From assembly GCA_029571225.1 (NCBI GenBank), contig JAKPTF010000035.1, forward strand, positions 12,575 through 76,574: 64,000 bases of DNA, read 5' to 3'. Source of the DNA: Candidatus Omnitrophota bacterium (GTDB lineage: Bacteria > Omnitrophota > Gorgyraeia > Gygaellales > Profunditerraquicolaceae). The translations under genes were made by a program, and so were the position numbers. The notes under the pieces are model-generated. The model saw only the letters and a list, made by a program, of their open reading frames with translations. It was not told the DNA's origin and did not search any database. The number at the start of each line of letters is the position of its first letter. Position 1 is the stretch's first letter. Shown here piece by piece: positions 10,154-64,000 of the stretch.

Positions 10154-10162
10154 TAATTGATA

Positions 10163-10880
10163 TTAAATCTTGTTGAGCGTATCTTCGTACACGGTCTGCA
10201 TTGCTGCGACTTCGTCGCTGACAGACACCAGCGGCACATCGGCCAGCTGCGCGGCGAGCTGCGTGATGTTAAGCAGGTCTTCCGAGCTGATGAGGCCTTT
10301 GTTCATATACGCAGCGGCCATGTTCTGGAGCTGCTGTCTGACCGTATCCTCGGTATTGAAGATCATGGCGAGTGCCTTTGCCATGACAAGCGGCATCGCA
10401 TTGATGCGTTTCTGCGTGACGGCCGCGCGGGATCCGGTTACGCGCACGTTCTTCACCTTTGCCTTTTCGAAGAACAGCGACGCATCGGATACGGTAAACT
10501 CGGCTTCGATATTGTCCATATCGGCATCCGCGCTGATGAGCGCGATCCTGGCCTGCGGGATCTTTGCCGCGGTCACTGCCTCAAGTGCCGCCTTCAAACC
10601 AACATGGATCGTCGCGATCCGGCCGACCCCTAATGCCTCAAGGGTCAGCTTAGCCGCGTCGTCCTTTGCCCATACGCTGAAGTCCACAACGCCTGCCGCA
10701 TCTTTTGCTTTCTCGAGCGCCGCGATGCTGCCGGCGTTTTCCATGATGGCGTTGGCGCCGAGGATAACCGCGCCCCTGGCGTTCTGGACATCGCTGATTG
10801 ATTTGACGAGATCATCGAAGTTCAACGCGCCTGCATTGTACACGCTTGCATCGCTCTTAAGCACAGTCTCGATGAGATCG
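10163..10880 (-). other. Shared C-terminal domain, copy 3 (roughly 230 aa, ends EDTLNKI)
   Basis: GAVILGANAIMENAGSIAALEKAKDAAGVV ... LISADADMDNIEAEFTVSDASLFF ... INAMPLVMAKALAMIF ... DVPLVSVSDEVAAMQTVYEDTLNKI. Confidence 0.7.
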
Positions 10881-15313: not shown

Positions 15314-15329
15314 CGTTTCTTCTCCTTTT

Positions 15330-20000: not shown

Positions 20001-23000
20001 CGCGCCTCTTGCGCGTCTCGATACGCGCGAGTATGTTATCGTACTGGCGGATCAGTATTCCGAACAGGACCTGATGAAGAAACGCATGGACGCTTTGATC
20101 CGTACAGGCGAGCTCGCTGTAGAGAGCGCCCGGGGAGGACAGTTTTCTTTCGAAACGCAAGCTTGCGCGCTCGAACCTGCGTTGAGCACGCTCGATCGCA
20201 CGGCTGCTGTTCGCCGGATATACGGACACGATATCAAAACCGACGTGGTTATTCTCGAATACGACGAGCGCGCCGATATCCGGGTTGATGGCCACAAAAC
20301 GGCCGTCATTGATGAAGTAATTCGTATCATGGCTCAAGACCACCTCATACGGCATTGCCTCATACATGCGTAGCAGCTCAAGGACCGGTTTATTGCGGTC
20401 GTACAGCGGGCTGCGGCTCGGCCATTCGTATAAATGGCGGGAAAAATGCCAGCACAGATTTTCAACGCCGGACCATGCGATCCTGCGAGCGCCTCCGTCG
20501 AGATGGTTATTGCCGTTCTTGATGAATTCAATATACGTGGGAAGCGCTTCGACCACATCGTTGTCCCCTTTGACGAGGATCGCGTACATGCCGAGGCTGC
20601 GGGCCGGATGGATATCACTGTCAAGATTATCCCCCACCATAATGGCCTGCGAGCTGTCGATATTAAAATCCCGCAACACAATCCTGAACGCTTCCGGGTG
20701 CGGCTTTTCTTTCTGAGACGGGAAATCGTCCTGCGTGATGATACGGGAAAAATATTTCTTGATCTTAAGGTATTCGAGCGTCTTATATGCCATCGCTTCG
20801 CAGTTGTTCGTCAGAAGCACCAGGGGATAATCCTCTGACAGCCTATGAAGCACACCCTGCAGCTCGGGATTCGGCTGAAGGTACCGGGAAAGATCAATAC
20901 TGGCAGTCAAGTATTCATGATAATCGTGGGCGCTCAATCCGAACATGCGGCATATCCTGCTATGGCTCTTTTCGCTGCCGACGCGCTGTTCGATCTCCGC
21001 GGCGGATAAAAACGGCCTTCGGCACCTGATGAACTCGAGCAGCGCCTGGTCATATTTTTGTGCGAGCTCATCGCTGTCGTAGAGCGTGTTATCGAGATCA
21101 AAGATGATAACCGCGACGCTTCCCGAAACCCGCTGCTGGACAGCCGGCAAAAACGTAGAAAAGAAATAGTACACCAGACCCGAGAGCTGCTTGGGCCCCG
21201 GATGCTGCTGCTGGTAGTAGATCTTGCGCAGCCGCGCAAGATATCGTTTTTCAATGGGGATCCCCGCGTTATCGACAACTACGATGAATTCAGCCAGCTC
21301 CAGAGGATGCGCCTTGAAATATTCATAACTGATGCGGCGGCCGCCCCGTTCCCCTTGATGGGCAAGATGCGCCAGCTCGTGACGGAGGATATCTTCCTGG
21401 ACGACCCGGGGCAGGGTCAGAAAATACGGATGGAAGCAGATGGTATTGGTCTCCCGGACGCTGTGGGCGACCTTGGACCAGCGCAAAGACTCTTGCGCCG
21501 AGATAAGGACGTTGAATTCCGGCGGGCCGCGGATGATGCCGCGTGCCGTATGGACCAGATTGGCGAATTCCTGGAAGCTCCAGAAATAATCATACACGAT
21601 GGCTCCCGGCTTGATGGCATATCTGCCTTTGGAGATTGAAAAGGATAGGCTCGTCGGTATCCTTTTTGCGTATTTCTTTTGGCCTTCCTTTCGGGCGTGC
21701 GCCGGTATGACAAGCGGGTAAAAATGACGCCGATGGCCGTTATTATACATTCTAAAAATCTTCCCGATCAGGATCAGAGAATTCACCGCAAGCCAGACTG
21801 AAATACCGATGCTGATGGCCAGGTCGAAGAACGGCATGCCGGTGACGAAGATGGCGATCCCCGCTGCTATTGCGGCGATAGATGCCGCAAGGTCCCCGAG
21901 AACATGGATGTATGCCCCTTCCATGTTGATATCGGTGCCCGAATGGCCGCAGAGGAACCGGTACCCGACCAGATTCACGATCATGCCGAAGAAAGCGATG
22001 ATGAGAACCTCAGCCCCCCCCACCGGTAGCGGCTTGAAAAACCGGACTAATGCGGATATGATGATATACCCCGATGTTATCCCGAGGATCAGCGCGTTAA
22101 TGCCCGCTGCTGCCAGCTGGAGGAAAGAGTTGCCTTCGTATTTCGGTGCAAGCCCGAACCGGTGCGTGGCCCAATGCGCGACCAATGCGCAGCTCAGCCC
22201 TGAAATATCCGTTATCATATGGCCGGCATCGGCGACAAGCGCCAGGGAATGGAACCAGAGGCCGCCGATGACCTCGATAAGCGCATATCCGGCGGTAATC
22301 GCCAGGACGATCATGAGCACACGTGTCCCGGCGTGATGATGTTCGTGGCCGCCATCCCTGAAACCATTACGATGGTTGACGTTGCCGTTGAACGTCTCGA
22401 CCATCTCCGGGTATTCGGCATAGGCAGCATAGCCCTCGCCGATCACCTTTCTTGTCGCCGCGAATATGACCGCGGAAAATACCAGGGTCTGCGTCATGCC
22501 AATAGCAAACATGAAACCGAATACCAGATAAGCGCCGATAGACATCACAAAACTGCGCAGGAAATCGCGGCGCGCCGTGCTGCGGCGGTAGCCCCGCAGG
22601 ATACGCTGGGCATAATTGAGCGGCCCGCCGACCATGCTCACAAGAATGATATCAAGAATTATATTGACCGCCATGTTCCCGCCAAGCATCAATGCAAGCG
22701 GGTCTGAAAGATACATTTTAGCCGCGACAATGGGTATGCATGACAGGCCGCTCGCGAACAAATCATTGGCGAGCTTCTTACGGCGCACATAACCGTACGC
22801 GCTTATAAGCTTTCGCACGCGCGTGGAAATATCAGCGATCCGGGGACATACAAGCTGATCGCCTACATATCCGCACGCTTTCATATCGACAAGGGCATTG
22901 CGCACGATCACAAGGCTGATCCAGACGCAGGAAAGCACAATACTGATCTGCCCGATGCCCTGTCCGAGCGACATGCCGATAACGGTTGCAAGTATCCCCG

Positions 23001-26000
23001 CAATAACCTTGGCATAGGTCAACGACCTGAACCTATTGTCCTCGAACGGCAGCTTGTTCTCCATGATCGCGTCGCTGATGTCCTGGAACCGCCGGCTGCC
23101 CCCGTCTGCGATGCTGTTGTCAAGCACCAGGTCATACTCGTCATCCGGCACAAAAACCAGGCACCGCGATACGGCGCCCCATCCTCTGCACCGGGAATAG
23201 TGGCGGCGGTCCTCTTCCCGGGCAACAATCTTGACCTTGATATCGAACATGCCCCGGTCAAGGCTGCTGAGCGAGTGGATACCCTCGACGACAACCACCC
23301 TGGCCGGACATTTTGTCGCGCATTCAACGATGTCTGCGGTCAAGGAAGCCCAGTTATGGTGCCCGCAGGTATAATCAAACGATTCTATATACGCATCAGC
23401 TGCAAACACCTTCACCCAAAACCTGTTTGCAAACACAAGACCCGTAAAATACGTTTTGCCTACTCCGCTCGACCCGTCGATGAGAACAAACGCCCTGCCT
23501 TTCTTGCGGCACACGCCATCGATCATAGCAGGAAGCAGCGCCTGCCCTTCCTTGAGCGTGGCGCGGAGCGCTCCTCCGTCATTCCGGGGATACCGGGGGG
23601 AAGAGGCGGGATCTTCCGCCACGGTAGATTCATCCGCCTCTTTTGGCCCCCCAATATGATCCCTGGAATCATAACTCACGAAATGTATTGCTTTGCGTAT
23701 TGCTGCGGCGTAGAGCTTCCAGACATTGCCCGAATGGTTCTTATGATACAGGTATGATAACAGCACGATCCACGGCACTGATGCGCATTGCGTGATCATA
23801 TAAGAATACTGCGGGAACACCAGAAATGCGAAGAATACGACCGGAAGCCAGTACGGCAGGTTGGTCATGAATATGAGCCTGGGATATTTCAAATACCGGT
23901 GCACGCCCTGTGCCGTACCGTCATAATACACGTCGCGCAGGCTCTGGCGCAGCGGATGCCTTTCGACCCAGAACCTGCCCAGGAAGTATCCTGCGCCCAG
24001 GCCGAACCAGGTGCCCGGACCTTGATCAAGAAATGCTTTTATGACAGGGATCGGAAGGCCGGATGCCGGGATGCCGAGCGCTCCGGCGGTATATGCCGTC
24101 GCCAGCGGCAGGACTATCCCATACCACCCTATGCCGAACCAGGCAGCGCTGAACGTAAAACCCAGTATCCCTGCCCTGATGACCCTGCCCGTATCGAGAT
24201 GGCAGTGTTCTTCATCTATGCGGATCTCATAACACTGCGCGAAATAATTTGAGATCGCCGCGCTGATGCACCCGACGATCGCACAGCGTACATAATCAGC
24301 CAGAATATAGCTGCTCACATAGGCATCCACGGAAAGGCCTGTCGGAATCGGAAAGATCAGCATGATCGCTGCTGCAAACACGGTGAAAATGACTGACGTA
24401 AGCGCCAGCTGTATGATAAACTGCCTGACCTGGCCGTTTTCAGCGCCGCCGTCTTTGTTCAGATCACCAAACAGATGCCGCGCGACGCCGAACCATTCGC
24501 GCTCATAGGTGAGGCGCGAACGTTCGATGCCCCGGGCAAGCGCCATCGCCTTCTTTTGTTTCACGCCGAGAAATACCAGTTCTTTCCATGCGCCCTCTCG
24601 CACGCTCGCAACGAACAAATCAGCGCCCTTTTCGTCAATAACCCCTTTGCCGATCTTTTCGAACACGCCGGAACCCAATATCTGATGCTGAATAAAATCT
24701 TCGTTCAGGTACGCATACATATACGCGGCCATGGCCGCGCCGGCTTCCCTGCCGATCTTGCGTATCAATTTACGGGCAGCACCATTGCCCCGCACAGCTT
24801 CTTCAGTCAGCGAACGCAGTGTGAATCCCTGTTTCTTGAGTTTCCTGGTCAGGTTTGGCCCGGAAAACAGGTCTTCAAAATCGCCCCGCAGGTCATTCCC
24901 CGACTCGTCCTTCGGGTGATCCCCGCGCGTTTTGGAACCCAGGAAAATGAACCTGCCGCGGTATCCCTCCGGAATATCGGTAAGCGGCACCACGCTGCGC
25001 AAGACCACATTATGGCCGAGTTCCCGTATTTCGCCATGCTCGCCGGCATATACTTTATTGTCACGAGCTGCAGCGGCATTACTGCCCGTTCCGGATATCC
25101 AGACTGTCCCATGTCCCCAGGGGAACAGGGCACCTTTCGGCGTTAGTTCTCCGTCAACAGCCGCATTGCAGTCATTATCGATATACACGGGCATACTGCG
25201 GCCGAATGCCTTTTCCATCCGCTGCCCGAGCGCCTCCCGGAGCGGATAGTGGTCAAACGGCATGTTCTTTGCGGCAAAAGGCGTTCCGACAACCCCCTTT
25301 TCCTGGTCCAGAGGGCCGGCAAAAGCTATCCCCAAACCAGCGATCCTATCAACGGCAATCCGGTTGTCGCGGACCACCCGTTCGATTTCGCTTACCATGG
25401 CATCAACGCACTCCTCAGGGCTCGCCTGCATAAGGCCCTGTCTGAAATAATCGTTCCACAACAATTCGTCCCCGCGGGCAGCGACCTCATACTGTTTGGT
25501 GATCGCGCCGACAGCAAGCTTGCTTCCGCCCACGCTCGCCGCCATCACGAGCGGCCCGGATTCATCGTGCCGGGCTTTTTCGACAATATATCGTACGGGC
25601 TCAAGGGATTCGTTATACTGGATGACGTTACGGGCAATACCAGCGGGATTGCTGAAGCTTATATAGACGTCGAAATCCTGCGCCGTAGGGATACGATTAA
25701 AATCATCGAACGTCCGTTCCAGATAATTCCAGACCCTCCTTTTTGACAGGGACTGTTTGGTTTCCAGAATATAGCTGTCGATCATTTCATCGTCCGTCAG
25801 GAGCAGCCTGAAATCTGTGATCGCAAGCCTGACCGTATAGCCGTCGCCGTTCGAAACAACCCGTGACCTGTTGCCGGGGCGCCCCTCCAGGCGCCTGACG
25901 ACGCGGTCAACTACTGCAGCCACCGCATCGTCGTTTTCCGCGAAATAGACGATGTTCTTGACACGCTCGAGTCGGCGGTCGTCTTCAAGAGAAAATATGC

Positions 26001-29000
26001 GGTCGTCGGCATGGGCGTCAAGGATCATGCTGAAAACCGAAATATGCTTGCCGAAACCGGCAATCTGTTCATACAGGTCCTTGAAATGCGCGTTGAACTT
26101 GAATTCCATGATGCCGTTGACCGTCGTAGCATCGACTTCCTTTGAACCCTTGGCGGAGATGAACACCCTCTCAAAATCATCGATGTCCCCCAGGTTCGCG
26201 AGGAACGCGATGATGTCCTCGAACTCGAAGCTGAACTTATGAATGCCCGAGGTCTCGCCGAGCATGCCTTTCACCCGGCCATAGCATTTTGTATCATGCC
26301 TGCAGCCGACGTCATGGGTCCCCAGACGGCTGAACCTGGCGAGCGTCGAGCGCACAACATTAACGAGCATGCCCTTGTGGGGGAAACGCGAATACATGAC
26401 ATTACGGTTGCCTTCCTGCATCAGGTCGTCGAGTTTGCTGACAAAAACCCCCATGTCCGCCTTGCGCACGAAACGGTTCCAGTCCGGTATGATCTCGATG
26501 CCGCGGAACAGCTCCTGCATCTGGCAGGACAGGCGCGCATCGGCAGCGCCGGCTTTATTGGCGTAAATCAGGCCGAGCAGAAGGCCGGCGATCCTGCCGT
26601 CTTCGATCCTGATCCGCTTATCGGTAAAGGCCGCGCGCATTTTCCTGAACTGATCATCGAGAGCGGACGCAGCGGGACAGAACGAACGTATGTCTTGGCC
26701 ATAGAGCAGCTTGAATATGCGTTCCATGGCGTCCGTGTTTCCCGTGGCAGGAACCGTAAGATCATTAAGCGCCTTATCAGCTGACGCAAGGGCCTCAGAG
26801 GCCGGATACGAGTATCTGACAATATTGGCAAGTATGGCCTGCCGCTCGTGTCCGGGCAGGCGCAGGAAAAAGTTCAGGTCGCCGTTAATTACCTCCTCGT
26901 TGCAGGAATCTTTTATCAAACATCGGTCGCAATGCAGTTTATGGCGGAGGATGAAGGTAAAGGTTGGTATATCGTGCAGGGCTGATGCGGGCAGATCGAT
27001 GACTCCGGTGACGGCGCAGGTCGTGAATATGCCTTTGTCGCTCGGGGAGGAAACAAGCTGGTAATCAGGAGGGCTCCTGATCGAATACACGTATCCCCAT
27101 ACCTTGTATTTCTTGAGCGTGTCAAGGGCGGCATTGAGGATACGCACGATATCGTCCTTGGTAAAACCCTCGCACTGGCAATTCTCAATGATCACCTGTT
27201 TGCCGATGATCCTGCCGTAGATGCCCGGCGCTGTCGCTGACGGCGCAATCGGGGCTTCGCCGCCGTCTTTGCGGCTGTTCATCCTGTCAAGCACCGACAG
27301 GAGCCTCTTTTGCTCCCGGCTTCTGGCGATCTGCAGGTCTTTTTCATGCAACCCTGCCCAGAAGTCATGATGCAGATGCCCCGCATTCTCGATAATGATC
27401 TGATCGATGCGCCCGCCGATTCCGCCGCGGGCCATTACCTCCAGGACGAATTCGAGGCGGAAGGACTTGCGCAGCGGCAGATTGATATTGTCGATCAGGT
27501 ACGGCACGCAGCCGCGCTCGCCGAATGTTTGGATAAATTCTTTGTAGGGCCACCGGCTGTCTTTGGCCATAACCGCCACGCTTGCGAGCACCCGCTGCGC
27601 AAGCAGGCCGGTAAGGATATCGCGGTAACTCCATCCGAACATCTCCGGATTTGCGGCTTTATGGATCGATTCGATGTATTCGATAAACCTGCTGCCGAAA
27701 CCGTCGGTGTCTTTTGCAAGCTCCTCGATGACCCGGGAATTGAATTGCAGGTTGAACACGCCCATCAGGAACTCAAGATAGAGGTCGAATAACGGCATCT
27801 TTTTTTCCGATGTCAGGAATATGATGCAGCCTGCCAGCCGGTCAACGATGATATGGCGGGCGGCATATTTCTGCCGGGCGTCTGATGGCAGGAGGCGGCG
27901 GTCAAGCACCCACACCTGCATTTCTTCCCTTTGAATCTGACCGCTGTTCAAATGCCTCTTCCACCATTTCGGCTTGACCGATTTTCTGTCAGTGAAAACC
28001 GAGGCGAACGCGAGCATCATGCGGAATGGTTCGCGTTTTTTCTCCAGAATACGGTTATAGATACCGGGGTATCTCTCGAACAGCGCAGCGACCTCTTTCG
28101 GTTTGTGCTGTTCGATGAGATCGCGCATGGCCGGCTCGGAGATGGCAAAGACTGTGCGCGGGATGCCTGATTTTTCCATCTGGCCGAGAAAGATGTCGCG
28201 CGCCTTGGAAACGCCGGAGGCAGTCGTCGTATCGAGGTCTGCCTTCAGGAAATTCCTTCTGATCTCGGCGAGCATCTGATTCAGTTCTTCCGGGTTATAG
28301 AGGTCCTTGCGGTACCGGTTCAGATGCATGGCGCGGATATTGCCCATCGCGTATCCCAGGTCGATCTCGAGGTCGCTCGTGATCCTTGTCGCGCTCACCA
28401 CCGAACCCGTACTCCTGAATTTCTTGCGGTTAAATGGTATAAGAAAGTGGATGTTTTCCGCGACCTTGCGGCGCAGGACCAGCTTCGGAAACAGGTAATC
28501 GATAAAACCGCTGACCACCTGGCTGAAAAGTTTCCTGCTGATCTGGTATGCGCCGGTTTGGCCGAGGATATTGCTGCCGCCGAGCAGGGTACAGCCGATC
28601 GTCGCAATGGTAAAACCGACGTCCTTATACGCTTCCGTGTATTGGGCATCGACGCCGAATCCTTCTTTTTTGCGCGTGTACATGGAATACAGGACTCCGG
28701 CGACGATATTGACAGGCAGCTGGATCAGGACGATGGCGAGTATCTCACCGTATCCGAGGATATTAACGGCAGTCCAGAGCGACGCGATGTTGAGGACGGA
28801 AAAGATGATGAGGCCGTAAAGCCCGTACTGGAGGAATTGCGCGAATTTCTGCCAGTCGATATCGGCCCAGTCCCATTTCTTGACCTTTCCGCCGTACCAG
28901 TGTATCTCATCCGTTATCACCGAGCGCAGGAATACGCTGACATGCCACAATATCCAGGAAATAACGGCCCACTCGTATCCGATAGGGATGCCGATGGTGA

Positions 29001-32000
29001 TGAGGAACACCGCAAGGACACCGACAAGCGACAGGGCGATCCAGCCGATATATTCCCAGCGGATCTTCTTCCTTTCATAAATATTCTTGATGACCGGGTC
29101 CGCAGCGACTTCCTTGCCTTCTCCGCCGTCCTGAACGGCCCCGGCTCCCCATCGGGAATAAATCCTGCGGTACGCATTCTGCGTGGCTTGGTCCCTGCTG
29201 AGCCTGAACTGGTCAACGGTGGCATCGAGGATATATCCGGAATCCTTGCCCGGAGGCGTTATAATGACGAAACTATGGCCGTCGAGTGCATGATACCTGT
29301 TCTCTTTAGCATATACCTGATCGACCCGGTACCCGAGCAGGGAGAATGCCTCGGCAAGCAGATACGACGCTAATCCGCAGCAACGCGGATATGCGGGAAG
29401 CGTTTTGATATACAGGTGCAAAATCCTGACCACGGCATCCGCCTGCGCTTCTACCGTGTCCATTTCATTCACCCGCAGCACCCGCATGCCCTTGAGCATC
29501 TTACTGCGCAGGACGCGCGCCTGCAGATACGGCCGCCTGCTTCCGGGGATAATGGAAATAAATCCGATGTGGTTGGCCAGATAATCAGGCGCAGGCTGCG
29601 AGGAAGCAAGATAGAAGTTATAGACAAGCGACCGCTTATCGAGTTTGTCCATTGGGAACAGAACATAATCGCGTCCCTTCTGCCCGGAAATTGAGCGTAA
29701 ACGCGTATATTCGCGCATGCGCCGTACCCTGACTTTTCTTCCTCCGTCCTGCGTGACGCTTCTTGCATTGCGTCTTTTTTCAATGGCCATAATGGCTTCC
29801 CGAACCGCACGGCGCACCTCAAGGTTCCTGTCGTCGCGGAATCTGGCCAATACTTCGATGTCGTTTTCATCCCCTATTTTACCCAATGCCGCAGCGGCAT
29901 TGGAACGGCTGCGGAAATACACGGACGGTTCGAGATATCGCGCCAGCATATGTTTTGCCCGACAATCACCGGTTTTTGCGCTGATTGTTCCGATTGCTTC
30001 AATGAAATCGGGGGTAACGTTTTCATTGTCGCTTTTGCGCTCCAGGGCAAGCATCAAAAACGGTATGGCGCCGGGATTCGCCATTTGCCCCAGATGACCT
30101 GCTCCTGTCCTGTTCCAGCAGTTATGATAATTGAATATCATGTTGATCTGCTGCCAGATGGGGGCCTTGCCCTCTTTTGTCTCGATCCTGCCTCTGACCT
30201 TTCCGGCTGCCTTAAACGCCTCAAAAACAGACGCATCGATATAAAATAAGCGGATAACGCTCTCTGAACGCGCATGCCGGAATGTTTTCTCGCACGCCGC
30301 GAGCCCATCCTGTTCCATATCGTGCTTTATGCGCCTGAATATCTCAACCGGAACTTCATAAACCGTTCCGCGTACCCGGCTACCCGGTTCCCTGACCGCG
30401 ATCGCCGAACTATATACTTTGCCGTTGTATTCGAATGCATATTTATAGATGCCAATACACCCGATATCGAGCTCGGCGTTCGTTTCGCGGAACATCCTCA
30501 ATATATCAAGGTCAAACCCAAGTTTCCACGGCCCATAGACAAACAGGGAAACATTCTCTTCTCCGCCGTCGCGCCTCGTATGATTATTCGTTGTGCGCAC
30601 GCGCTCCAGCAGGGCTGCCAGCTCGCCGCGCCGGTAGCGTTCTAAAAGTATCGCGCGCTCGCGAGCCACAGATGTATTGCTTATTCTCCTGCCAAGTTTC
30701 ACAGACACTTCCCATGCGGTAATTCTTTGCTCTCCGGCAAGAAGGTTATCGATAGCGGCACGGTCATCCAATGTTATGCCATTTCGTTCCATGGTATCAG
30801 ACAGAACTTCAACGACCCCGTCCCGGATCGTCCTGGGATAGCGGCCCATGTTATTGTCAAACTCTTGAATGTCCGGATATATGGCCTTCATGATCTTCCG
30901 GTCCACGCTTTCTATCTGGAATCCCTCTTTATTGACAAACCTGATCGTGATTGCTCCGAGGAATGCAAGAACGCGCAGATCCAGATTCGGGTTTAATGCA
31001 CCCGTAATGCCTTTTGATAAAAGAGCCACAGCCATGGCCCATTTCGTCAACGGACCTGACCCGTAATCATGCGTATAGATGAGGTACAGCCTGCGGCGCT
31101 GCAGGGGGATCGGGTTCAGAAGTATTCGTTCGACGCGCTGAACCGTATTGCGGCTCACGTTCTGGCTTTTTTCCAATGACTTAATCCGGGCAATGCGCGT
31201 ATCTTTGGAGAACAGCGTTTTCATGGTACGCATGAACATTATCACATGCCTAACAGACGTGACCTCCGAAAGGCCGGCCTTTCCTTTGAGATGCTCGAGC
31301 AAAGAATCCAGTTTGACTGCATCGGGATCTTTTCCTCCGTCACGGAAAGGCTCACAAAACATCCTGGTCCGCTGAATGGCGCGTTCCTGTTCTTCCGCGA
31401 TCCGGTAAAACTCTTTATCGGTAAAATAAACGCTGCCACCGTATTCCACTTCCAGAGCATCCACAATAAGCTGGAACAAAAACATCTCAAACTGAACCTT
31501 GTCCAGCGGAAAGCTGATGCCGGAATCGATATAATGGGACAAAGGCGATTCGACCCTCTCGCCGTAATAATACTGCGGCAAAGCTGCCAGGATGTCCTGC
31601 TCCCTGCTCAAGATCCCCCGCTGATGCATGATCCTGATAATGAACAATTGCAAAACCATTGCGAGATCGTGGAACTCGGCGTCCGGGCTATTATCGGGCA
31701 TCGTGATTGTGATCTGCGAAAGTCTGCCCTGTGGATCATAGCCGACATCTAAGGTGCCGTAATCGTCCGTCCTGTTTTCACCAAGGGGATATATTACGGT
31801 CTCGATATTCACCTCCAGGTTTGTTGCCAGGCAGCGGATGAACGCCCTGAAACCGGGGAGCATCATCTTTTTTGCCTGCCGCGAGCACGCGGACGCGTGC
31901 ATCATGCGCATTGCGCTTTGTACCCTGAAGAAATATTCCTTCAGCCTTCGCGCCAGGGAAATATGGCTGTAATAGAACCGTGTTTGCGCATACACCGCTG

Positions 32001-50000: not shown

Positions 50001-53000
50001 GGTGAAGCATGATAACGCGGGCGATCACGTCCTCATCGAAGCCGAATTTGCGGCGCACAAGATTCAACAACTCGCGCTCGCTCAGTTCCTCGATCCATTT
50101 CACGCGGAAACGGTTCATCAAAGCGGGAGACAAGGCCTGGCGGCCGGCATACTCAACCGGGTTCATGGTAGCGAACAGGCGGAAGTTGGGATGCGGAACG
50201 ATCTTCTCACCGTCATGCTCGCGCAGGATGATATTGCGGTCGTCGTCGAGCAGCGAGTTGATGCGCTCGATGATCTGCGGTTCTGCCAGGTTGATCTCAT
50301 CCAGGAGCAGCCAGTATCCGTTCTTCATGGATTCTATCAGTATGCCGTCAACCCATTTCAACGTGCCGTCGGCCTGCGGCCTGCGGCCGCCGATGAACTC
50401 CAGCTTATCGGTCTGGCCGTTCAAGTTGAACCTGCGGAAGTTATTATTGCTCAAATAGGCCAGATAGCGCACAAGCGACGTCTTGCCAACGCCCGTTTCG
50501 CCGATGAGCAGGATAGGATCGTTAAGCGTCACTGCCTGGCCGATCGCCTCGAGATTGCTCACGGTCGAGGCTGTATGCACGAGATGAGCGACGTCTGCGG
50601 AAGGGACATACGGCCCGCCCTGTTCATTGATCATTACCTTCGCGCAGCCGACCTGCACATAACCTTCCTTGGGCGGCAGGATGCGATTGTTCGCGTCGCG
50701 TTCGTTGAAGTGCTTGCGCGACCGCACGGACTCAAAACATTGCTTCATTTGCGGATGATATTTGGCAAAAACAGCTGCCACTTCATCTGATTTCTTCTGC
50801 AGGTCTTCCGGCAGGACCGGCGCATTGAGATCGACTTCTGCAGCCACATCTTTTAATAATCTGCCGTCCACTTTCTTATAGCCGAGCGTAATGAGCGCCC
50901 GCGCTGCCGATGCTGCCACAAACCTGTCTTTGCGGTCCAGGAGCGTCATCAAGTATGTTGCGTATTTCTTGAACCGGAATTGATTGACCAGGTCGATGAT
51001 CGCCCGTTTGATCGGCCCATCCTCATAGGTAATGGTATGGTCGATCAGCTGTTGCGCTATTTCAGGCGGCAGGCCTTTCCAGGCATAAATTGCGGCAACG
51101 GTCGTCATATCGACTTTATCGCTGAGCATTCCGGAACTTTCCCTGATCGCTCCGGCCAGATCTTCAGTTTGGCCGCGGACAAAATACCTGAACAGGACAT
51201 CCAGGTTGTTTGAGAACAAAATGTCCCGCTCGTCAAATCCTTTGAATTCCACGATCTGGTCAAACTCATCGCTTGCCGCGACATCGATAAAGCTGCCCAG
51301 ATTCAGCTCCGACATAGTTTTCATGAATTCTTTGCGGTCCTCGGGCTTTTCCATGCGGTCGCGGTATACGTACATCGCGCCCTTGACGAATGACCGGGCA
51401 AGGCCCAGTCGAGGGCTGAACTCGCGCACGTAATTCGACCACGCGCGCAGGTCTCTCAGGCTGAACTCATACGGCTCTTTGCGGCCGGCGCCGATCATGT
51501 TCTTTTTAACCTTTTCCCTCAGCTTGGAATGCAGACAGACCATCTCCTTAACCACCTCATCCTTCTGCGTGAGGTTCTCAAGGGGTTTTATCGCGTCTGC
51601 GACCAGGTCTTGTTTACCGCCGTCCTTCATCGGCGCAAGTGTCGCCTCGGTCACCGCAGGATCGAGCGCCTTGTTGAGCTGATACCATTCTTTCTGGTTT
51701 AACCCGTAGTTCGCAGCCAGGGAATGCAGGAAATCCACCTTTTGCTGCTGCGAATACGCTTGCCATTCGGGCTGGGCCTGCTTGTCATAGAGTTTAAGTG
51801 CGGCGTCATGGAAATCCGGCCGGATATCCTTGAGGATAGTCTTGAGGTAAACATGCGTCCATCCGCCCGGAGGACCGCGCGCAGCAAGCTCCATGTGCTC
51901 ATAGAGCCTGATCAACTGTTGTTCCTGTCCGATAACGTCCTTACGCCTGAATTGCCGTCCAAGCCACGATTCGTATTTGGCGACCACGCCCTGGACCAGC
52001 TGGTAACTTTCGATGCCTTTGAGATTGCTGATAAAGTCGTCTGCGCTCCTCGCTCCCCTCGCTGCTGCAGGCACGCCTTCGGAGATAGCCTCATCAGCCG
52101 CGATCTCCTTGGAACGGAGGAACTCGGCCAGCGCCTCGATACTGCGACAGCACTGCCTGAGCTGTTCCGGAGCCAGGCTAAAGACGAGTTTTTTGAAATC
52201 TTCGTGCCTGCTCATGGTCTTGAACGTTTCAAGGCTGACACCGGCCTTTTTGTCAAGCCGCACCTGTGCCGCACTAAGCACCAGTATTTTTAACCTGGCT
52301 TCTTCAAAAGACTGTGAGTGATCCGCAATCTCATCCTGAAATGCACCTTCTTCCTGCAATTCACGGAGCAAAATTTCCGTGTTGCGCTTGTCAGAGAGTG
52401 TATTAATGATCCTGCGGGCAACATCCGAGCGGGAATTAAGCAGGAATAATTTAAGCAGCCCTGCTATGTCCTTATTCGACCACTGGCCGATGATGCTGTT
52501 CATCTTTAAGATCAGCTCATCAGGGCACGGATCACAATCAGGGATCAGCATTTTTTCGATCACCGCTCTCTCTTTGTTACTTATGGAACAAGATACCCGC
52601 AACTGCCTGAATGCGAACACGGCATATATGCCAAGATGAATAAGCGACGCTACCAGCATCACAGGCACGAAAAGGCAGCAAACGCTTCCGAAGAGCCAAT
52701 AATACCAGGGGATTACAAAAGTTATGCCATAAAACCATTCTATTCCGACTAAGGCTATGGCGAATATTATTCCACCGAGGATTTCGCCGACGGGTACTAT
52801 ATGAAGCGCTATAAAGGCCCCGAGAAACTTCGAGTCCCATAAACCTTGGATCCTCTGATCACATTTGGCCGAGAGCTGTTCCAATGCAGCGTCTTTATTC
52901 GCCAGGGGCAGCGCCGCATACTCGGCAAACAGTTCCTCCTCGTCCGGATTGCCGCCGTCCATCAGCGGCGCCAGGGTCGCCTCGGTCACCGCAGGATCGA

Positions 53001-56000
53001 GCGCATAGACAAATTTCTGCTGTAGTGATAACGTCTCCCAATCAGGCCGCAAGCGCCGGTGATACAGCTGGGTAATAGCCTCTTTCAACCGGCCGGGACC
53101 GCATGCTTCCCTGGCGATAACAAGAAATTCCAGATTCTCCTGGCGGCCGCCGTCGAATGCCCCGGACATGCGATAGTGCTGATCTATTGCGGCATACTCT
53201 TCTTTTACCCTGGCCATCCATTGATCATGAGCTTCCCTGCCGTTTTGCCCGGAGAATTCCGGTATTGTTTTCTGCGCTGTCGTTGATATCAGGTCAAACA
53301 GTTCCGTGTCGGATCCGGTCCCGGTGCCGAATGTATGCTGCAGGTCGCGTATAAGACATATCCCCATGCCGATGCGCTCGAGAACCGTCTGATCGTACAG
53401 ATTCTGATATGACAGAGAAGAAATATTCCTGGCCAGATGAGCCGGCGACAGGAAAAGCCATTCTAACATAAGCGATTTGATAATGGTCGCCGGAACGGAT
53501 AATGAGATCCCACCCAGCACCAGAGACACGGCAACGGCGGAGAGCCAGGTAATAGGCGAGACGATCACCACCCATATCAGGATGTAGCCGATGTTAAGGG
53601 ATGCCTTTGCGCACCATGAAAGCACGGTATCAATGGTGTTTATCGTCTTGCGGTGCCTGCCAAGGGCGAGCGGCCATCCTGCCGCATCTTTACTGCGTGT
53701 TTTCCATCCGATCAGATGAGCTGTCATACGGCAGGAATCAGTTTCCAGGGACGGATATAAACCGTTGAACACCGCCGCTGCCAGATTGACATGCGTGAAT
53801 ATTATCAGCGCAAGCCAGGGAGACGCGATGTTCGGGATCAATACCGAAAAGGGCGCGATCCCCAGGGAATACAGGACGATAAGGCCGATCACTGCCAGGA
53901 TGAGGTTGGATAAAGGCCCTGCCGCTGCTACGTAGAAGCCGGACCGGCTGGAGCTAGTGATCGCCGTTGCGGGATCCTCCTCGACATATGATGAGACAGC
54001 GGACAGCCTGATGCGTCTTATGGGCCTCTTGAATCGGATCATGACGAGCGCATGCGCGGCCTCATGGATGGCTGATATGGAATATACTCCGAGAGTCAAG
54101 GCGCCCAGCACCGGGTTCAAGACCCACAGGACGATTATTGCAGGAACAAGAAGAACCAGATTAAAGTGCAGTTCGATCGGGATCGATGTGGGCAGGTGAT
54201 AGACGCTTGAGAACCCTCTTCCGGTCCAGCCGGATTTTCGCCGCTCCGTTTCAGATTCTCCGCCGTCGCGCAGGATGACGTGCGGCAGGGTCTGATAATC
54301 GGGCACGACGGTGCGGATGTTCACCGCGCGCTTGAGCTTCTCCCAATCGACCTTATTGAGCTGATGCTCTGCGGCGATATTCTTCAACCAACCCAGCTTC
54401 TCCTCCAAGGATAAGCCGTTCCATTCAGGCCCGCTTGTCTTCTCAAACACCTTGACCGCCGCTCTGCGCAAAGGCGCATGGGGTCCGTAGTTTTCCTGTA
54501 TCTGTGTCCTGAAATACAAATAGGTCCAATCTGCGGAATCACGAGGTATCGTCAGCCCGATTTCTGATATAAGATCCTTCAGTTTAGTCTCCTGAACGTC
54601 AAGTTCATAATTATGCCCGAGCGGACCGTTAATAAAATAACCCAATTCCCACTGTTTATATGCCCGCACCACAGCTTCTTTCAGGGCCCAGAACTTAATG
54701 GCATGCAGATTCCGAGCAATCTCCTCTTTGGTGGCGGCGCGGGTCGCCGCGGGCACAGAATCGCATAATATCCCGTCGACTGCGATCCCCCGGCTGCGAA
54801 GGCCGCTGCACATCGAGACGATCATATCAAGGCTTTGCTGAAAATCATCCTGCGCGAGATTGCGGATCATTTCCAGAAATTCAGTCTGCGTGGTAAGATG
54901 AAGAAACACCTCGTGGGCATGCCGCATACCTTCCGACCCCTCTCCCAGGTACGGCACAAGCTGACGCTCAAATCCATACAGGGCGCGCAACCTATCCCTG
55001 GCGGTTTCGGCACTATCTGCCAGGCGGAATACTTCGCTCTGGAACTTTAACTCTGCCTGTAGCGATTCCGTAAGCCTTGCTCTTCTTCTATCGTTCCAGA
55101 CAGACAACGCGCAAAACCGCACGGCCTTGTCGCCCTGCAGCCGGGAGAGCCAATCCTGGATCAGAAACGTCAAATACCTGTCCGGAAGCTGGCTGAAGGC
55201 TTTTGCCGATCTCTCCAGACTATTATCAGATACATCGGAGCTGTCAGATACTATGATCTTCTTCATCCGGGGATGATCAACGCAATGGTGCACGGCCAAC
55301 GCAATATCATACACATGACCCGTGAGGAATAAAGCGCCCATAACAGGCATGATATAAAGAATATTCAGGGAAAGCGTGAAACCCACGCCAGCAGCTATAA
55401 AGTTTAAAATTACAGTCATGAAGAAAACTATCCATCCAAGATCAGCTTCTGGTGACGTATGATATGTCCGCGCCTCCAGTGTTTTCCAGAAAGGGACCTG
55501 CGGCAGAGCCTTGCATAAGCGATTAGAGATTTCTTCATCTGCCACAAGCAGCATATTGACTACGAAGTTTAAAATAGATATCATGAATATTGTCGCGCAC
55601 AAAATGAGGCCCAGAGCGGACAACATAAAAATTCCATCGATAGTCACGGCCTGCGTATAGAACTGCCATGCCAGACCTGTATCGCCTCCTGACAACGCAG
55701 CCCAGGCCTGCGCAAAATATGAAAGAGATATCTGATCCTGGGGGGTTAAGAAACCGGCGGCGAAAACGCTGCATGCAGTCCACAGCGACCCGCCATCCGA
55801 ACGCAGGCTCGCCAGTCCGTCCTGGTCTGTTAATTTCTCCCGAATAAGACCGTTGTTGAACTGCGGGTTGACCCAGACGATCCTTCCATCAGGCGTAATG
55901 TCGCAGAGCGCGGGGCACACAATATCGATGCCGAAGGTCCTGTGCCACTCATCCTGTATATCGCGCGGCAATATCAAACGGTATATGTCGGCCACCGCAC

Positions 56001-59000
56001 GACCCTGCTCGACGTGGGTATATGCGGCCCTGTCCGGCCAATTCGCCGGGTCAAGAACCGTTTGCCAATCCGCCTCTGTAATCTCTCCCTTCTGCAGGCC
56101 CAACACCACCCTTAAACTGCTCAAGAGTTTTTGTCTTTCCTTCGAAAGGTCGCCGCCGTCATGCTCTGCCGCTAAACTAGTCTCCTTGGCACTGATTATT
56201 TCAAGCGCATCCCCGGCCATTTGAAGCGTTGCTTTCATACCCCGTATCTGCTCATCGGAAAAATCGCCGCTGGCGCGCACACTTTCAGCGATCTCATCGC
56301 GCATCTCTGCGGCGCGCGCGCGGCGGTCCGCAGGCTTTTCCTCCGCAACCAGATGGTGAATACCCTCGGCGATCATAACCAGGTTCCGGTCGTTCATGAA
56401 GTCTGCCGGGCGCAACTGGCCGGCAATATCCTTGAGCTGCTGTACCGACGTTATGGCATAATCGTGGTTAACCAGGCCAAAGGCTGAAAACATCAAAACG
56501 AATACACCTATAATTCCCAGGCTGAAGGGCACATAAAACGGAAGAATGCCGATTACGGACAATACCGCCAGGGCAATGCAACTGACCGCGACAATCCGGC
56601 TGTAGACTACGGTCACCCTGTTCGCATAAACGACATTTGTTTTCATCGCAAGCAATGACCTGATCACGCGGCCCGAATCAAGCGGGTACATCGGCATGAA
56701 AAGATTGAATATGCCCAGAATCCAATTGATCAGGCCAAGCGACACCAGCCAGGCGAGCGGGCTTGCCATATCTATGACCGGCCAGGCGAACAGGTTGAAC
56801 GAAGCACCCAGGAGCGCTGCGGGAACGAACAGCGACGCTGCTATGCCGAAACTTGCAAGGGGGCCGGCAATGGAAACCAGAAATTCCTGTTTCGGATCCC
56901 TGAACTTCATGTCCCGGATCGCCGTAGTGCCTCCCAGGATATGAAGCGTAATATGATCCGTTTCAAAGCCGTATCGCCGGGCAGCGCGGATATGCGAAAA
57001 TTCATGCGCCAGCACTGACAGAAGAACGGCAATATAGAACAACAGAAGTTCCCATCCGGTTAACGCAAACAGGGCAATCGGAATAACCAGCGTGATGTGC
57101 AGCCGCAGCGGGATCCTGGTCGGTATCTGTAACGATGGAAATATCCCGTCGCCGACCAATTCCCAGGATTTGCTCTGCGCTGCGCCGCCGTCCCGGCTCG
57201 CATCGATCCGTGTCGACGGACAAACCACCCTGGCTCTGAACCATAGAGGAACATGCCGGATCATATCCTGCCTGATCGAAACAGCTTTTATAAAGCTGTC
57301 CTGCGCCATGTCTTCAAAGCCAAGGGCAAGCGACATTGCCCCCAGGTTTACATGTGATATATGGCACGCCGGATTGAGCTCGATTGCCTTCTGCATCTCT
57401 ATAATGGCTTGCTGAAAATAACCCTGCCGGTAATAGAGTAGCATGCTGCGGTTATAGAGAACCGACGCGTAATCGGGATTCTGCTCAAGCGCCTTCCGAT
57501 ATGCCGAAAGTGCGGCGTCATAGTGGCCGAACTCCGCATATACCGCTCCCAGGTTATTATAAATACAACAGCTCACGCCCGGCTTATCCATTATCTGGAA
57601 CCCGAAGTAAAACAGATTCAATAATTCTTTCTTTGTGATGCGGTCGACATCCAGCACGCCTGCCTGATATTGCTGCTCGAGTTCGATAACACGCTCGCCG
57701 GATATTTTATAGTTTGGCTTGAGTACCCAATATACGCCTGCTTTGCGGTAATATTTCCTAACATTGACGACCCGCAACGTGTTTAATATGAAATCGATCA
57801 CCAGCAATCTTTTCTTGTCAAGCATGAGCCCGACAAAACAATGTCCGATACGGCTGCAACCCCGGACGTTGAATCCCAACATTGCCAGGATGATATACGT
57901 CAATTGCGCGGTTACAATACATCGCGCGAGGCATGCTTTCATAGCAGCGCTTTCGCTGCCGGAACGGGAATCGGCATCAATGACATCGAATATATTTTCG
58001 TGGTTCAGGCTGTTGACTAACAGCATGCTTATCTGCGGCGGATCAACCTCTTCAAAAATCCGGTTCCTGTCGAACAGGTCCCACACCACAAGCATTAATT
58101 GGCCGAGATGCTTTCTGCCTTCGGGGGCATTACGCAGGCACTGATGCCATTGCGCTGATTGTTCTGTAAGGGTTTGCCATGTATCTTCAGGAAGGACCTG
58201 TTTGATCTGAGCGTTCAACGCCGGAACGGCATTTTCAGGATACCCGATGCTCACGAGAATACCGGATAATTTTTCATCATACGCTCCGCCGTCCAGGCTG
58301 AGATACAACTCCAGAGCCTTGTTCCTGACCAGCGCAGTCATTTCCGCTTTCATATCGGCATCGTCAGGGTGCGCCATGCAGCGGCGGAAGGCGCTATCAA
58401 AAACCCGGGCCGTGAATTCAAATCCTGCGTTATAGTAAAATTTTATGTAGCCGAACATCCCTGCCGGATCGCGGTCGATCACCGGCGACGGATCATGCGC
58501 AAATCCCCTGACCGCGCCCTCATGAAGGGAATATATTGCACGGAGCCGTTCGATGAATATCTCGCGCGTCCAACCCTGATGCCGGTATTCCGGGAACAGG
58601 AAGAACCCGGTATTAAAGAACCACTTGGAATGCCAGCCAAATCCGACAATCCCATCCCTGTTGGCCAGGATCTCGAGCCTTTCATGGCGGCCGCCGATCG
58701 TGACGTTGAACCCGCGGGGTCTTTCCGAACAGGACCAGTGTATCCCGCGGCCGAGGATCGTCGTGTAGAACGGATCGTTCTCGAACATCATGATACCTTC
58801 TGTCTCAAGACAGAAATACGTCCTGCCGTAACGGGCGCTGTGCTGACTTATTTTTGCATCAAGCATTGCTACCTGGTCAGAGCTATCGGCCCAATCGGAA
58901 TCGAAAAGCTCGATCGGCTCTTTGATCCTGCTGACGATTTCTTCGCGTCCTGTCCCGCCGTCGCGCAGCGCTCTCTCGATCATCTTGATGTCGCTTGAAA

Positions 59001-62000
59001 GCCTGTCCATGGCAAAATCGGTATACCTGCAGGCGATCATGCGTTTATTGACCGGCAGTTCTCCCCGCGCCACGCGCGTCCGGATGCCCTTCATGGTAGA
59101 GGTAAACCCGCTGATGAAGCTATCCCTTGCCGCAGGCCGGATATCCCGGGCCGCGATATTCGACAGGAGGGATTGCAGCATTCCGGCCTGGGTGCTCAGA
59201 TCGTCTTTGTCCAGAGTGAACGCGCTGACAAAATCTATATTGTACATTTCAATAACCGTATCGAGGTCAAGATCAACCCGGATATTGCTCGGGTTCCTGT
59301 CACCGAGGCCGATCAAATAAGCGGCAAATGCGGTCTTGCCCAGCAAATATGCCAGTTGCGGGACAAAACGACGGTTCGCGAGCAACGCGTCATTGAAAAG
59401 GTAGATATCCTCAAGGCTCGAATTGCCCACGTTGGTATAAACATAGTAATGGCTCCGGTAATCGACGAGCATCTGCGTCGGCAGGGTAAACGCCTCCAGG
59501 ACTATCGAGGCATACGGCTCATAGCTGTACGAAAAGGCCTCTTTCAGGATGAGCGTTATATGCTTCGAACCGAACCGGACTTCCGCGCGGTACGTCCGGA
59601 GGTCATCAAACGAGGTCTGGATTACGCCTTTTATTAATTTCACGGATCCGATGCCGTCGCAGCCGAGGCGGCAGAGAAGCTGCCTGATAAACTGTTCTTC
59701 CTGGCCGCCGTCGCACGATTGTTTTGCGGAAGCCGCATCCTCTTTCCCATCGGCAGCAAGATACTTTTCTATGACGTGGCCGGGGATCAGCCTGTTCAAT
59801 CGTTTGACAGCAGATTCCTTTTCGTCAGGGCCAAGCACATTGATCACGTGCAGATTTCCCGGCGACAGGACAATCGCCTTCATGAAATTTTCCATCGCCT
59901 CCTGTTTATTTTCCGAATACAGATTAACGAGCCCTAAGCCAAGATAACTGCTGTAGTCTGCGGGATTGAGTTCCCGGGCAAAAGAAAACTCTTCCTCGGC
60001 ATTCTGGTAATCCCCTCTCTCAAGGTAATTGAATGCGGCGCCGATGTGCGCAACGACATAGTCCGGTTTAAGTTTAAGGGCCTTAAGATAATGCGCCAGC
60101 GCCGCATCCTTATCGTTCAGCCGGTCATACGTCATCGCCGCTTTCTTGTACATGACCGCCATAAGGCCTGATGCGTCGGTAATATATATATTCGAGTAAT
60201 ATAACGGGAACATCTGGGCATCTTTGAGCGTGTACGCAGGCTGATTTTTCCTGTCGGACCTTTCTTTCAGCCGGAGCAATGCCGCAGGCTCAAGCGGCCA
60301 GTTCCATGACAGATATTTTCCCTCGGCGTGGTAGGTATCCTGCAGCGGCACTGCCTTAATAATGCCGGTGAACAGGTCGACAAAAATGTGCTCGCCTGCC
60401 CAGGGGACAACCGCGAACACGGGGCCGGAGCCGACGGCAATCCTTGTCTCATAACCAAGCATCGATAACAGCAGATACATAAAAGCAGTCTTGTTGGCGC
60501 ACGTAAAAAACGAGTCATAGATCCTGTTTTTCTCTTCTTGCGCGAGGGGCGAGGCAAAAAGGGCGTCGAAAATATGCTGTATCGGCAGCGAGTGCACCAG
60601 ATATTCGTGGATTAACCAGACAGACCTGATATAAACCTTGTCATGCGCAAACCCGACTTCAGGGAGTTCGTCGTGCGTTGTTTCAAATACGATCTCTCGC
60701 GTCTTTCCGTCCCGGACGCTCTCGTCAAATATTTCCCTGAAGGTCTTTTCCATGATGAGAAGCGTGTCCCGGCTGAATTGCGCGCGGAGCTCTTCGATGA
60801 AAGCGGGCATGATCTCCTTTTCGCAGGACAACCGGCGCAGGATTTCAATCAGGTCCCCGTCATCGGCTATATGCCCGCGGTTGGGAAGCAGGAGCGCCTG
60901 CTCCGCCTTGAGCATGGCCTCTTTTTCAGCTCGCGATTTCCTTTCTATCTCAAGGTACATGGAAAGATACGGGATATCAAGGAACGTCGGGCAGACCACG
61001 ACATCGACCGCATCCGTATTTGCAAAGCCTTTCTTGAGGCCGCGGTAATAATTCATGATGCAATCGCCTTTTTCGAACATCTTCAGATTAAAGATGACGA
61101 ACGGTTTCTTGGCCTTCTTTTCCGCAAACGCCGCTGCCTGCAAGACAATACCCGCAGCGCTTTCAACCGGCATGGCGAATCGGGCGACAAATACGCCGTC
61201 GATGTCTGGTTGCCCTAAATAATCCGCGGCATTGTCCGCATTGACGTACCTGCCGTACATAAGATAGATCTTTCGCGCAATGCGCGGCCCGTACCGTTTG
61301 TTCCGGGCGAGCCACGTCCGCAGTGTCCGGCAGACCGCCTGGGCCTCGGCAGGATCTATTGCCTTCTGCTGCGACTCCTGCTGCTGCTTTACCCACAGCG
61401 GCAGATAAATGACAATGACCTTCTGGGCCTGTTTCCTGCCGATGCCCTGCAGGGCGGTGCTTAACTGGTTGATCAAAACCTCATTCGTGACCCCGCGTTT
61501 TCGTTCATCGAGCGTATCAGACACGAAAATGGCCGGTATCAGGCCGTGCGCCAGCGCAGCCTTGACCTTCTTATTGACGAGTTCATACGATTCCACGATC
61601 TCGACAACGCCGTGCGTCCGTTCCGGATGCCCGACCATGACAAAGGCGACCTGCTCGCGTAAAAGCATGGAGGGCGAAACCTCTCCCGTATACGGCCCCG
61701 CGTCCTTGTAGAACATGTTCTGGGCGCCCATGAATATACCGCCGTCGCGGTCGGTATCGGGGGCGCATTTTTCACGGTCGGACAGCTCGGTCATATACCC
61801 CTGCGCCGCCAGGAATTCGGCTTCTTCGAACCATGTCAACTTCGCATTGCGCATTTGTTCCATGACAATGCGGCGGTACAGCGATCCGGGATCGAGTACG
61901 ATGGTCACCAGATAACTCCACGGAAGCCGCTCGATGCGCGTTCCGTTCCTGATGGTCCTGCCGGAAAGCGGCACCGGCAGTTCCTTGCACATGATGCCGG

Positions 62001-63996: not shown

Positions 63997-64000
63997 AGAA

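Follow-up and report, generated by a model that had tools for sequence, protein, structure and literature searches.

A 64,000-nucleotide stretch of Candidatus Omnitrophota DNA (contig JAKPTF010000035.1, positions 12,575 to 76,574; hereafter the window) encodes on its minus strand a giant open reading frame (ORF) in which the tripeptide Asp-Gly-Gly (DGG) occurs 37 times and splits the chain into 38 cassettes of ordinary protein size. Two of these cassettes are M50 modules of the site-2 protease (S2P) type. Sequence comparison gives about an even chance to the reading that the giant is a DGG-delimited polyprotein, in which the M50 modules are cargo and DGG is probably cut by a soluble Gly-Gly-specific peptidase. 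A preliminary description of the window had proposed five embedded protease-like modules as candidate machinery for processing the chain. Its observations are partly confirmed. Several independent but indirect lines favour its general idea that modules the size of proteins, linked through DGG, form a giant precursor that probably undergoes processing. Its interpretation was right in spirit but not in the assignment of the machinery, the M50 modules being more likely cargo than scissors.

In the arrangement proposed here, a multi-enzyme giant ORF of the Omnitrophota would be an in-frame chain of protein-sized cassettes, each closed by [K/R]-D-G-G. The M50/S2P modules would be complete cassettes of a stand-alone type, products of the chain like its TIM, CoaE, ROK, HAD, CDF-transporter and AAA+ cassettes, and not the protease that serves its junctions in general. 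The DGG motif would act as a signal at the amino acid level, most probably as a proteolytic junction and leader site in soluble, unfolded linkers, and its reader would probably be a Gly-Gly-specific cysteine peptidase. The leading candidate for this reader would be the C39 domain borne at the N-terminus of such giants, with a non-canonical specificity.

A giant reading frame divided by DGG

The giant ORF extends over more than 15,600 codons without interruption and is still open at the end of the window (position 64000); its N-terminus lies outside. More than 12 unrelated Pfam families are tiled along it, among them DUF1152, TIM, TPR, Peptidase_M50 (twice), CoaE, HEAT, ROK, Cation_efflux, HAD and GNAT, together with an array of midasin/MoxR-type AAA_5 domains followed by VWA. 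Counting hydropathy peaks, which is a crude predictor, gives 51 transmembrane (TM) helices. Parts of the ORF match, at 99.8-100% identity, protein fragments deposited under the name 'MAG TPA: Candidatus Omnitrophota bacterium'. Its Omnitrophota origin, its length of more than 10 thousand amino acids (kaa), its many TM helices and its tiled, unrelated enzyme domains place it among the multi-enzyme giants of this phylum. No longer copy of the locus appeared in a scan of the genome collection, made with an exact 48-mer and with a profile of the 450-residue paralogues described below, or in two metagenome scans.

The 37 observed DGG tripeptides compare with 4.16 expected in the ORF (Poisson p = 1e-22; the maximum in 2000 shuffles was 13). 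They make up 44% of all GG dipeptides in the chain, and their median spacing of 352 residues is that of an ordinary bacterial protein. Thirteen synonymous codon versions with varying wobble positions are used, the commonest being GACGGCGGC (12/37), and the enrichment is absent in the other five frames. Free codon choice and confinement to the coding frame point to a constraint on the peptide, and an RNA- or DNA-level reading of the motif was rejected on these grounds. A 2A-like ribosomal skipping signal was likewise rejected as unlikely, there being no conservation upstream of [K/R]DGG. Across 40 DGG sites the residue before Asp is Lys or Arg in 22, against 4.9 expected, and no further flanking position is constrained.

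Most of the sites (33 of 37) fall in soluble linkers and are separated by over 10 residues from every predicted TM helix; four sites fall within 10 residues of such a helix and six within 25. Recognizable domains begin or finish near the motif. The CDF transporter and both M50 cores start 10-25 residues after a DGG, and the HAD and CoaE domain matches finish about 20 residues before one.

Conservation of the motif in paralogues and other giants

Seven paralogous membrane cassettes of about 450 residues (Table 1) are 20-34% identical and share only 11 invariant columns, three of which are the terminal DGG. These segments had been cut at DGG, and the evidence therefore lies in the register of the motif, which stands at a fixed distance from the preceding W..LN.A.DP motif. 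The cassettes have no Pfam match, and their relatives outside the source organism are few and distant.

Conservation extends to a distant, frameshift-ridden relative on a 20-kb JGI contig (JGI 3300045909 Ga0496406_003196, here L002). Its forward frames contain 23 DGG against 5.1 expected, and its reverse frames one against 1.4. The TIM module of L002 is 40% identical to that of the window and its other modules 21-44%. A junction reading R-DGG-IF[ML]GAQNM precedes TIM in both chains, and the L002 module that resembles seg27 of the window chain (seg27-like) is directly preceded by DGG despite a different upstream neighbour. These two joints suggest that cassettes move between genomes as DGG-delimited units. 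An N-terminal part of a giant from another Omnitrophota metagenome-assembled genome (P0065; 6,788 aa, filling its contig) carries 19 DGG against 1.76 expected, a 10-fold excess that makes DGG its top enriched tripeptide. Its N-terminal domain passes the Pfam threshold as PF03412 Peptidase_C39 (36.6 bits), and no HExxH occurs in the 6,788 residues.

L002 (1-18773) is called as about 26 short genes spread in alternation over the three forward frames, and represents either an assembly rich in indels or a copy undergoing decay. In cassette order it departs from the window, TIM being followed directly by the seg27-like module. Where L002 has the DGG that closes the TIM cassette, the window chain reads HIADDGDLIE (about aa 1080-1090; 60730-60760, minus strand) and continues into a Cys/TPR domain; this DDGD may mark a former joint whose loss merged two cassettes. 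In another partial Omnitrophota giant (P0066, NCBI MFA5350818.1), SSP[IV] occurs seven times against 0.58 expected, at linker-like places, and may be the junction motif of a different lineage.

The M50 modules

The motif strings named in the preliminary description are all present at or near the positions it gave, all on the minus strand. For M50 module 1, the claim of an HEFSH with a downstream LD[G/S]G holds in full. The cassette has a DGG immediately upstream (57184-57192), and its own final three residues are DGG (56152-56160). HEFSH is encoded at 56992-57006, and the motif bearing the ligand Asp, NLFMPMYPLDSGR, contains PLDSGR at 56668-56685. The module scores 60 bits with PF02163, above the gathering cut-off of 27.2, and it aligns along the entire core of the Methanocaldococcus jannaschii S2P structure 3B4R (E = 1.4e-14). 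The two are in register, with HEFSH on HELGH and NLFMPMYPLDSGR (PMYPLDSGR) on PAFPMDGGR; module 1 also retains the LGG strand motif together with AGPL and FN..P, and five hydropathy peaks across the aligned core indicate, by the same crude predictor, a multi-pass membrane core. Module 1 thus keeps the full catalytic set and is catalytically intact on paper.

Module 2 is a degenerate paralogue (28% identity). It passes the same cut-off with 32.1 bits and retains HEAAH (54052-54066), AGPL and, in ETDSCR (53728-53745), an equally spaced Asp. A gap and Ser stand in place of the LGG strand motif, LDG has become TDS, and the alignment to 3B4R is confined to the N-terminal half (E = 0.043). The HEAAH and the family membership claimed for it are real. 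Each M50 cassette is followed by a short cassette and a 450-residue cassette (cassettes 7-8-9 and 10-11-12), and the two blocks look like an old tandem duplication.

The closest relatives of the embedded modules are stand-alone M50+CBS proteins of 360-400 residues, and both modules have a DGG on either side, as all other cassettes do. The S2P metal-ligand motif, P-[LM]-D-G-G-R, itself contains a DGG, which is present in 38 of the 39 stand-alone relatives retrieved (N..P...DGG). Both embedded modules have Ser after the ligand Asp (PLDSGR, ETDSCR), the motif of module 1 being otherwise consensus, and HExxH and AGPL are retained in both despite the loss of DGG. This pattern is suggestive of avoidance of an internal DGG, and the replacement would mark the M50 modules as subject to the DGG signal rather than as its obvious reader. 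The modules are read as cargo because few DGG lie near a TM helix, because they have DGG on both sides and stand-alone relatives, and because P0065 is rich in DGG yet has no HExxH. Possibly they perform normal S2P tasks.

The explanation offered by the preliminary description would make the embedded M50 modules the enzymes that process the precursor in cis, at DGG or close to it and within or beside the membrane, with assistance from the zincin-like and transglutaminase-like modules. Two bona fide M50 modules, one with the full catalytic set, agree with it, as do the over-representation of HExxH in the chain (12-fold, see below) and four DGG that lie 1-10 residues before a predicted TM helix. 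These four sites are what stands of the proposal that DGG junctions sit at the edges of TM helices. S2P enzymes cut inside membrane helices, and nearly nine tenths of the sites are remote from any; in the leaders of neighbouring proteins, DGG stands about 35 residues past the hydrophobic helix. In addition, the M50 modules are DGG-flanked like other cargo, P0065 has its 19 DGG without an HExxH, and of the five modules just two could be verified as proteases. Cleavage of DGG by embedded intramembrane proteases is highly improbable.

A narrower role can be drawn for the M50 modules, which could serve as site-2 enzymes for the few cassettes in which DGG directly adjoins a TM helix. In such a two-step scheme, a soluble peptidase would cut DGG (site 1) and the M50 modules would act only where this cut leaves a short stub ahead of a TM helix, releasing or clearing membrane-anchored modules. 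S2P enzymes as a rule act on substrates already shortened by an earlier cut, four to six DGG have the start of a TM helix within 10-25 residues, the ORF has its 51 predicted TM helices, and one L002 cassette has a weak match to the Rce1-like/CPBP intramembrane protease family. The scheme is, however, purely inferential, M50 module 2 is degenerate, and stand-alone M50+CBS proteins are common housekeeping genes whose presence requires no special role. It is considered distinctly unlikely.

Other protease-like motifs in the chain

The giant ORF contains five HExxH motifs against 0.42 expected. Besides those of the M50 modules, one is HELAHLAH (starting at 21381, aa 14206), which a single cassette carries between its Cation_efflux and HAD domains, within the stretch TICFHPYFLTLPRVVQEDILRHELAHLAH. 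It had been described as a SprT-like module, an identity that could not be substantiated. PF01863 (YgjP-like; 14.1 bits, E = 0.049) and PF10263 (SprT-like; 12.1 bits, E = 0.19) stay below their cut-offs of 26 and 25.6 and match the same 35 or so residues around HExxH. The region has no match in NCBIfam or, by sequence, in the PDB, and its single-sequence AlphaFold2 model is unusable (pLDDT 36). For the HEGAH motif at aa 7199 (Table 1), which the preliminary description does not list, Pfam detects no peptidase family. HEHHH (aa 13884) was rejected as a protease motif, because this His-rich segment forms the N-terminus of the CDF transporter, immediately behind a DGG.

The two cores described as transglutaminase/cysteine protease-like lie in cassettes 3 and 6. 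They are paralogues (26% identity), and TPR repeats follow each. The Cys-helix motif of cassette 3 starts at 60501; the second core lies at 57793-57921 and not at 57.6 kb, where the TPR array starts. In cassette 6 the predicted order of elements is a Cys helix followed by strands with His and Asp. The Cys and Asp columns are conserved between the two cores, but the His column is occupied by Pro in cassette 3. No match was obtained in Pfam (E up to 5), in NCBIfam, in the PDB by sequence or profile, or in a search of 5.8 billion proteins. With hhalign, only the TPR part of the Cys-core alignment aligns to Escherichia coli YchA, and nothing aligns to the C39 domain of P0065. An AlphaFold model of cassette 6 from a two-sequence alignment is too poor for use (mean pLDDT 57.7, and 35-50 in the core). 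No family, structure or homologue thus supports the transglutaminase-like identity of the two cores, which are candidates by sequence pattern.

It could still be proposed that the Cys/TPR cassette, with C2026, H2052 and D2068, is an in-cis cysteine peptidase that reads [K/R]DGG, the TPR repeats binding the linear motif. The sequence pattern and predicted order of elements fit a papain/transglutaminase core, most known Gly-Gly-specific peptidases have a papain fold, and transglutaminase-like plus TPR is a known architecture, E. coli YchA being annotated so. Set against this are the empty database searches, the restriction of the YchA alignment to TPR and the failure to align with the P0065 C39 domain, the low confidence of the modelled core and the Pro in the paralogue; moreover, the SirB1/YchA family is not known as proteolytic. 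Such a role for this cassette is very unlikely.

Leaders of neighbouring glycolytic proteins

Downstream on the same strand (window 1-15343, minus) lie three separate large genes with central-carbon enzymes: a PPDK protein, a class-II aldolase-PFK-GAPDH fusion and a PGI protein (Table 1). All three share a leader in which a hydrophobic helix is followed by an NLRP motif and this in turn by [K/R]DGG, with the DGG about 46-74 residues from the start and about 35 residues past the helix. These DGG do not stand between two modules; a module joint therefore cannot explain them, whereas a leader-removal site can. On sequence grounds, leader removal fits better than a hinge. ATP-using glycolytic enzymes behind an export-type, signal-peptide-like leader are an odd combination. 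The 951- and 1,726-residue proteins also have very similar C-terminal tails (PLV[SA]VSD[ED]...[YF]EDTLNKI, ending at the stop codon; 7218-7400 and 10163-10350, minus strand), which could be a docking or sorting domain. A search of the first 7.3 kb of the window against Rfam returned nothing.

The leaders bear on the possibility that there is no proteolysis at all, DGG serving as a flexible hinge or being kept as a boundary along which cassettes are shuffled, the giant working as one chain and its protease-like modules being ordinary or dead. In keeping with this, some cassettes look inactive (module 2 of M50 and the TIM module), and cassettes have been shuffled between genomes at DGG. Furthermore, the Asp of DGG is encoded by GAC in 31 of 37 sites, compared to 47% of Asp codons across the ORF (p = 5e-6); microhomology for cassette shuffling is one idea to account for this bias. 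Arguing in the other direction, the free wobble of the 13 codon versions places the constraint on the peptide, the leader DGG of separate proteins joins no two modules, and a hinge needs neither an invariant tripeptide nor a basic residue before it. The topology of the chain is also difficult to reconcile with an uncut product. The TM helices counted between cytoplasm-type, ATP-using domains are odd in number (17, 1, 9 and 3, by the crude hydropathy count), and an uncut chain would consequently leave some of them extracellular. The same topology paradox was met in published analyses of Omnitrophota giants. An uncut giant is regarded as unlikely.

The TIM module is circularly permuted (60901-61737, minus strand; aa 754-1032). 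Residues 59-251 of E. coli TpiA match aa 754-956, and TpiA residues 2-64 come afterwards, at aa 963-1032; the new N-terminus coincides with a DGG joint. The column of the catalytic Glu165 of TpiA holds Leu (YEPVWAIGTG against YLPLWVKQQQ), and the module is possibly inactive for this reason.

Table 1. Coordinates of the giant ORF, its protease-like and paralogous cassettes, and the neighbouring proteins in the window
Feature	Position	Strand	Details
Giant ORF	17077..64000	-	at least 15,639 aa; Pfam domains in same frame over full length
M50/S2P cassette 1	56152..57183	-	aa 2272-2615; PF02163 60 bits; 3B4R E = 1.4e-14
M50/S2P cassette 2, degenerate paralogue	53146..54258	-	aa 3247-3617; PF02163 32.1 bits
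Zincin-like stretch TICFHPYFLTLPRVVQEDILRHELAHLAH	21355..21462	-	aa 14179-14214; sub-threshold zincin profiles
Further HExxH, HEGAH (aa 7199)	42388..42402	-	N-terminal part of VWA-bearing cassette after AAA+ array
Candidate papain/transglutaminase-like core, cassette 6	57793..57921	-	C2026, H2052, D2068; sequence pattern; upstream of TPR array
Paralogous core, cassette 3	60376..60501	-	C1166, D1207; Pro1192 in paralogue's His column
Seven 450-aa paralogues, cassettes 9, 12, 14, 17, 18, 20, 21	within 33190-55788	-	2-3 TM helices and ~300-aa soluble domain
PPDK protein, at least 2,398 aa	ORF from 7194, runs off window start	-	RDGG and KDGG in leader at 6952..7044
Class-II aldolase-PFK-GAPDH fusion, 1,726 aa	ORF 10163-15343	-	KDGG 15128..15136 closes ~70-aa N-terminal leader
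PGI protein, 951 aa	ORF 7218-10073	-	KDGG 9864..9872 closes ~68-aa leader

The reader of DGG

The sequences show the anatomy of the chain, the M50 membership of two cassettes, the enrichment and conservation of DGG and its loss from the M50 motif; we infer that DGG is a cutting site in a polyprotein, and comparison with other giants suggests a candidate for the cutting enzyme. C39 is reported as the recurrent N-terminal domain of Omnitrophota giants, for which the cleavage points were stated to be unknown (10.1101/2023.11.21.568195), and a 2026 survey (10.64898/2026.06.07.730766) has C39 as its biggest architecture cluster. Self-cleavage by a C39 or S8 peptidase has been proposed in the papers on these giants.

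The assignment of DGG to a C39 reader is weak, and a number of observations weigh against a DGG-delimited polyprotein cut by such an enzyme. The case for DGG cleavage is wholly comparative. C39 cleaves after Gly-Gly, and its canonical substrates need hydrophobic residues at -4, -7 and -12 (PMC6363468); at the 40 DGG sites these positions are depleted of hydrophobic residues, with only 6, 7 and 6 against 14.8 expected. No C39 was detected in the 15.6 kaa within the window, the giant's N-terminus lying outside it, and a phmmer comparison of this domain from P0065 with each of the 38 cassettes yielded only noise. Four other giant fragments (P0057, P0060, P0062 and P0066) contain no DGG. Since the two M50 modules are paralogous, the change from DGG to DSG may have been one event in their common ancestor, and one of the 39 stand-alone relatives also lacks DGG. 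Finally, the neighbour leaders resemble Sec signal peptides, which would place the leader DGG outside the cytoplasm, while the DGG at the N-terminus of the CDF transporter and those next to ATP-dependent enzymes and kinases should be cytoplasmic; a single compartment does not obviously fit all.

An extended form of the polyprotein reading can be put forward only tentatively. In it, the four-residue code [K/R]DGG would mark each cut point in the chains and in their companion leaders for a dedicated Gly-Gly peptidase, domains that naturally bear DGG, such as the S2P motif, would have been edited to escape it, and the products would perhaps be exported or delivered to prey.

Comparison with known systems

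The chain shares its phylum, a length of more than 15 kaa and dozens of TM helices with the Omnitrophota giants of the 'Archaeovorin' type (West-Roberts et al., 2023) and of the 'multi-enzyme metabolic cluster' class (2026 complete-genome survey). It also shares with them the mixture of TIM, ROK, HAD, GNAT, HEAT, TPR and peptidase domains and the presence of PPDK and glycolytic enzymes nearby. The 2023 and 2026 papers on these giants make no mention of M50, of DGG or another junction motif, of glycine motifs or of linkers.

With site-2 proteases (3B4R, SpoIVFB, RseP) the window modules have in common HExxH and the N..P...D motif in membrane helices. They differ in being embedded in a giant chain without the CBS pair of their nearest relatives, in having DSG or DSC in place of the near-invariant DGG and, for module 2, in lacking the LGG strand motif.

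In C39 double-glycine systems (the PCAT/AMS transporters, e.g., LahT and ComA), Gly-Gly likewise ends a leader or linker, and P0065 has a C39 domain at its N-terminus. The window sites, however, have no hydrophobic -4/-7/-12 helix; instead, Lys or Arg is frequent at -4 and Asp is invariant at -3. They are repeated dozens of times per chain, the leaders of the neighbouring proteins carry a signal-peptide-like helix, and neither a C39 domain nor an ABC transporter was seen in the window.

Multi-effector chains that autoprocess are known from MARTX and large clostridial toxins, which have an internal cysteine protease domain, and viral polyproteins are cut at Gly-Gly-X by ASFV pS273R and coronavirus PLpro. 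All of these are long chains of unrelated modules with short linker sites read by a dedicated cysteine protease. The window giant differs from them in having at least 38 modules, a cargo of housekeeping-type enzymes and membrane proteins, a different motif and no in-cis reader protease identified.

Implications for Omnitrophota giants

Whether the Omnitrophota giants act as one chain or as cut pieces is an open question in the literature, and the authors describing them name the absence of known cleavage points as what stopped their analysis from going further. Neither the DGG cassette architecture nor the loss of DGG from the S2P motif of the embedded modules appears in the literature searched. 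A defined junction motif provides exact predicted cut sites and renders the question of cleavage testable. It also allows giants to be split in silico into foldable units and metaproteomes to be searched for new chain ends, and the candidate proteases (C39, M50 and the Cys/TPR module) become testable with small reporters. One predicted product is short: only 33 residues (IKAFLAGAFNNNVLEKTAIEFVVWIDGCFSTNI; 17080-17178, minus strand; aa 15607-15639) lie between the last DGG and the stop codon, and this C-terminal tail would be a free small peptide if DGG is cut. If the extended polyprotein reading is true, dozens of housekeeping-type enzymes, transporters and proteases would arise in these bacteria from a single translation unit.

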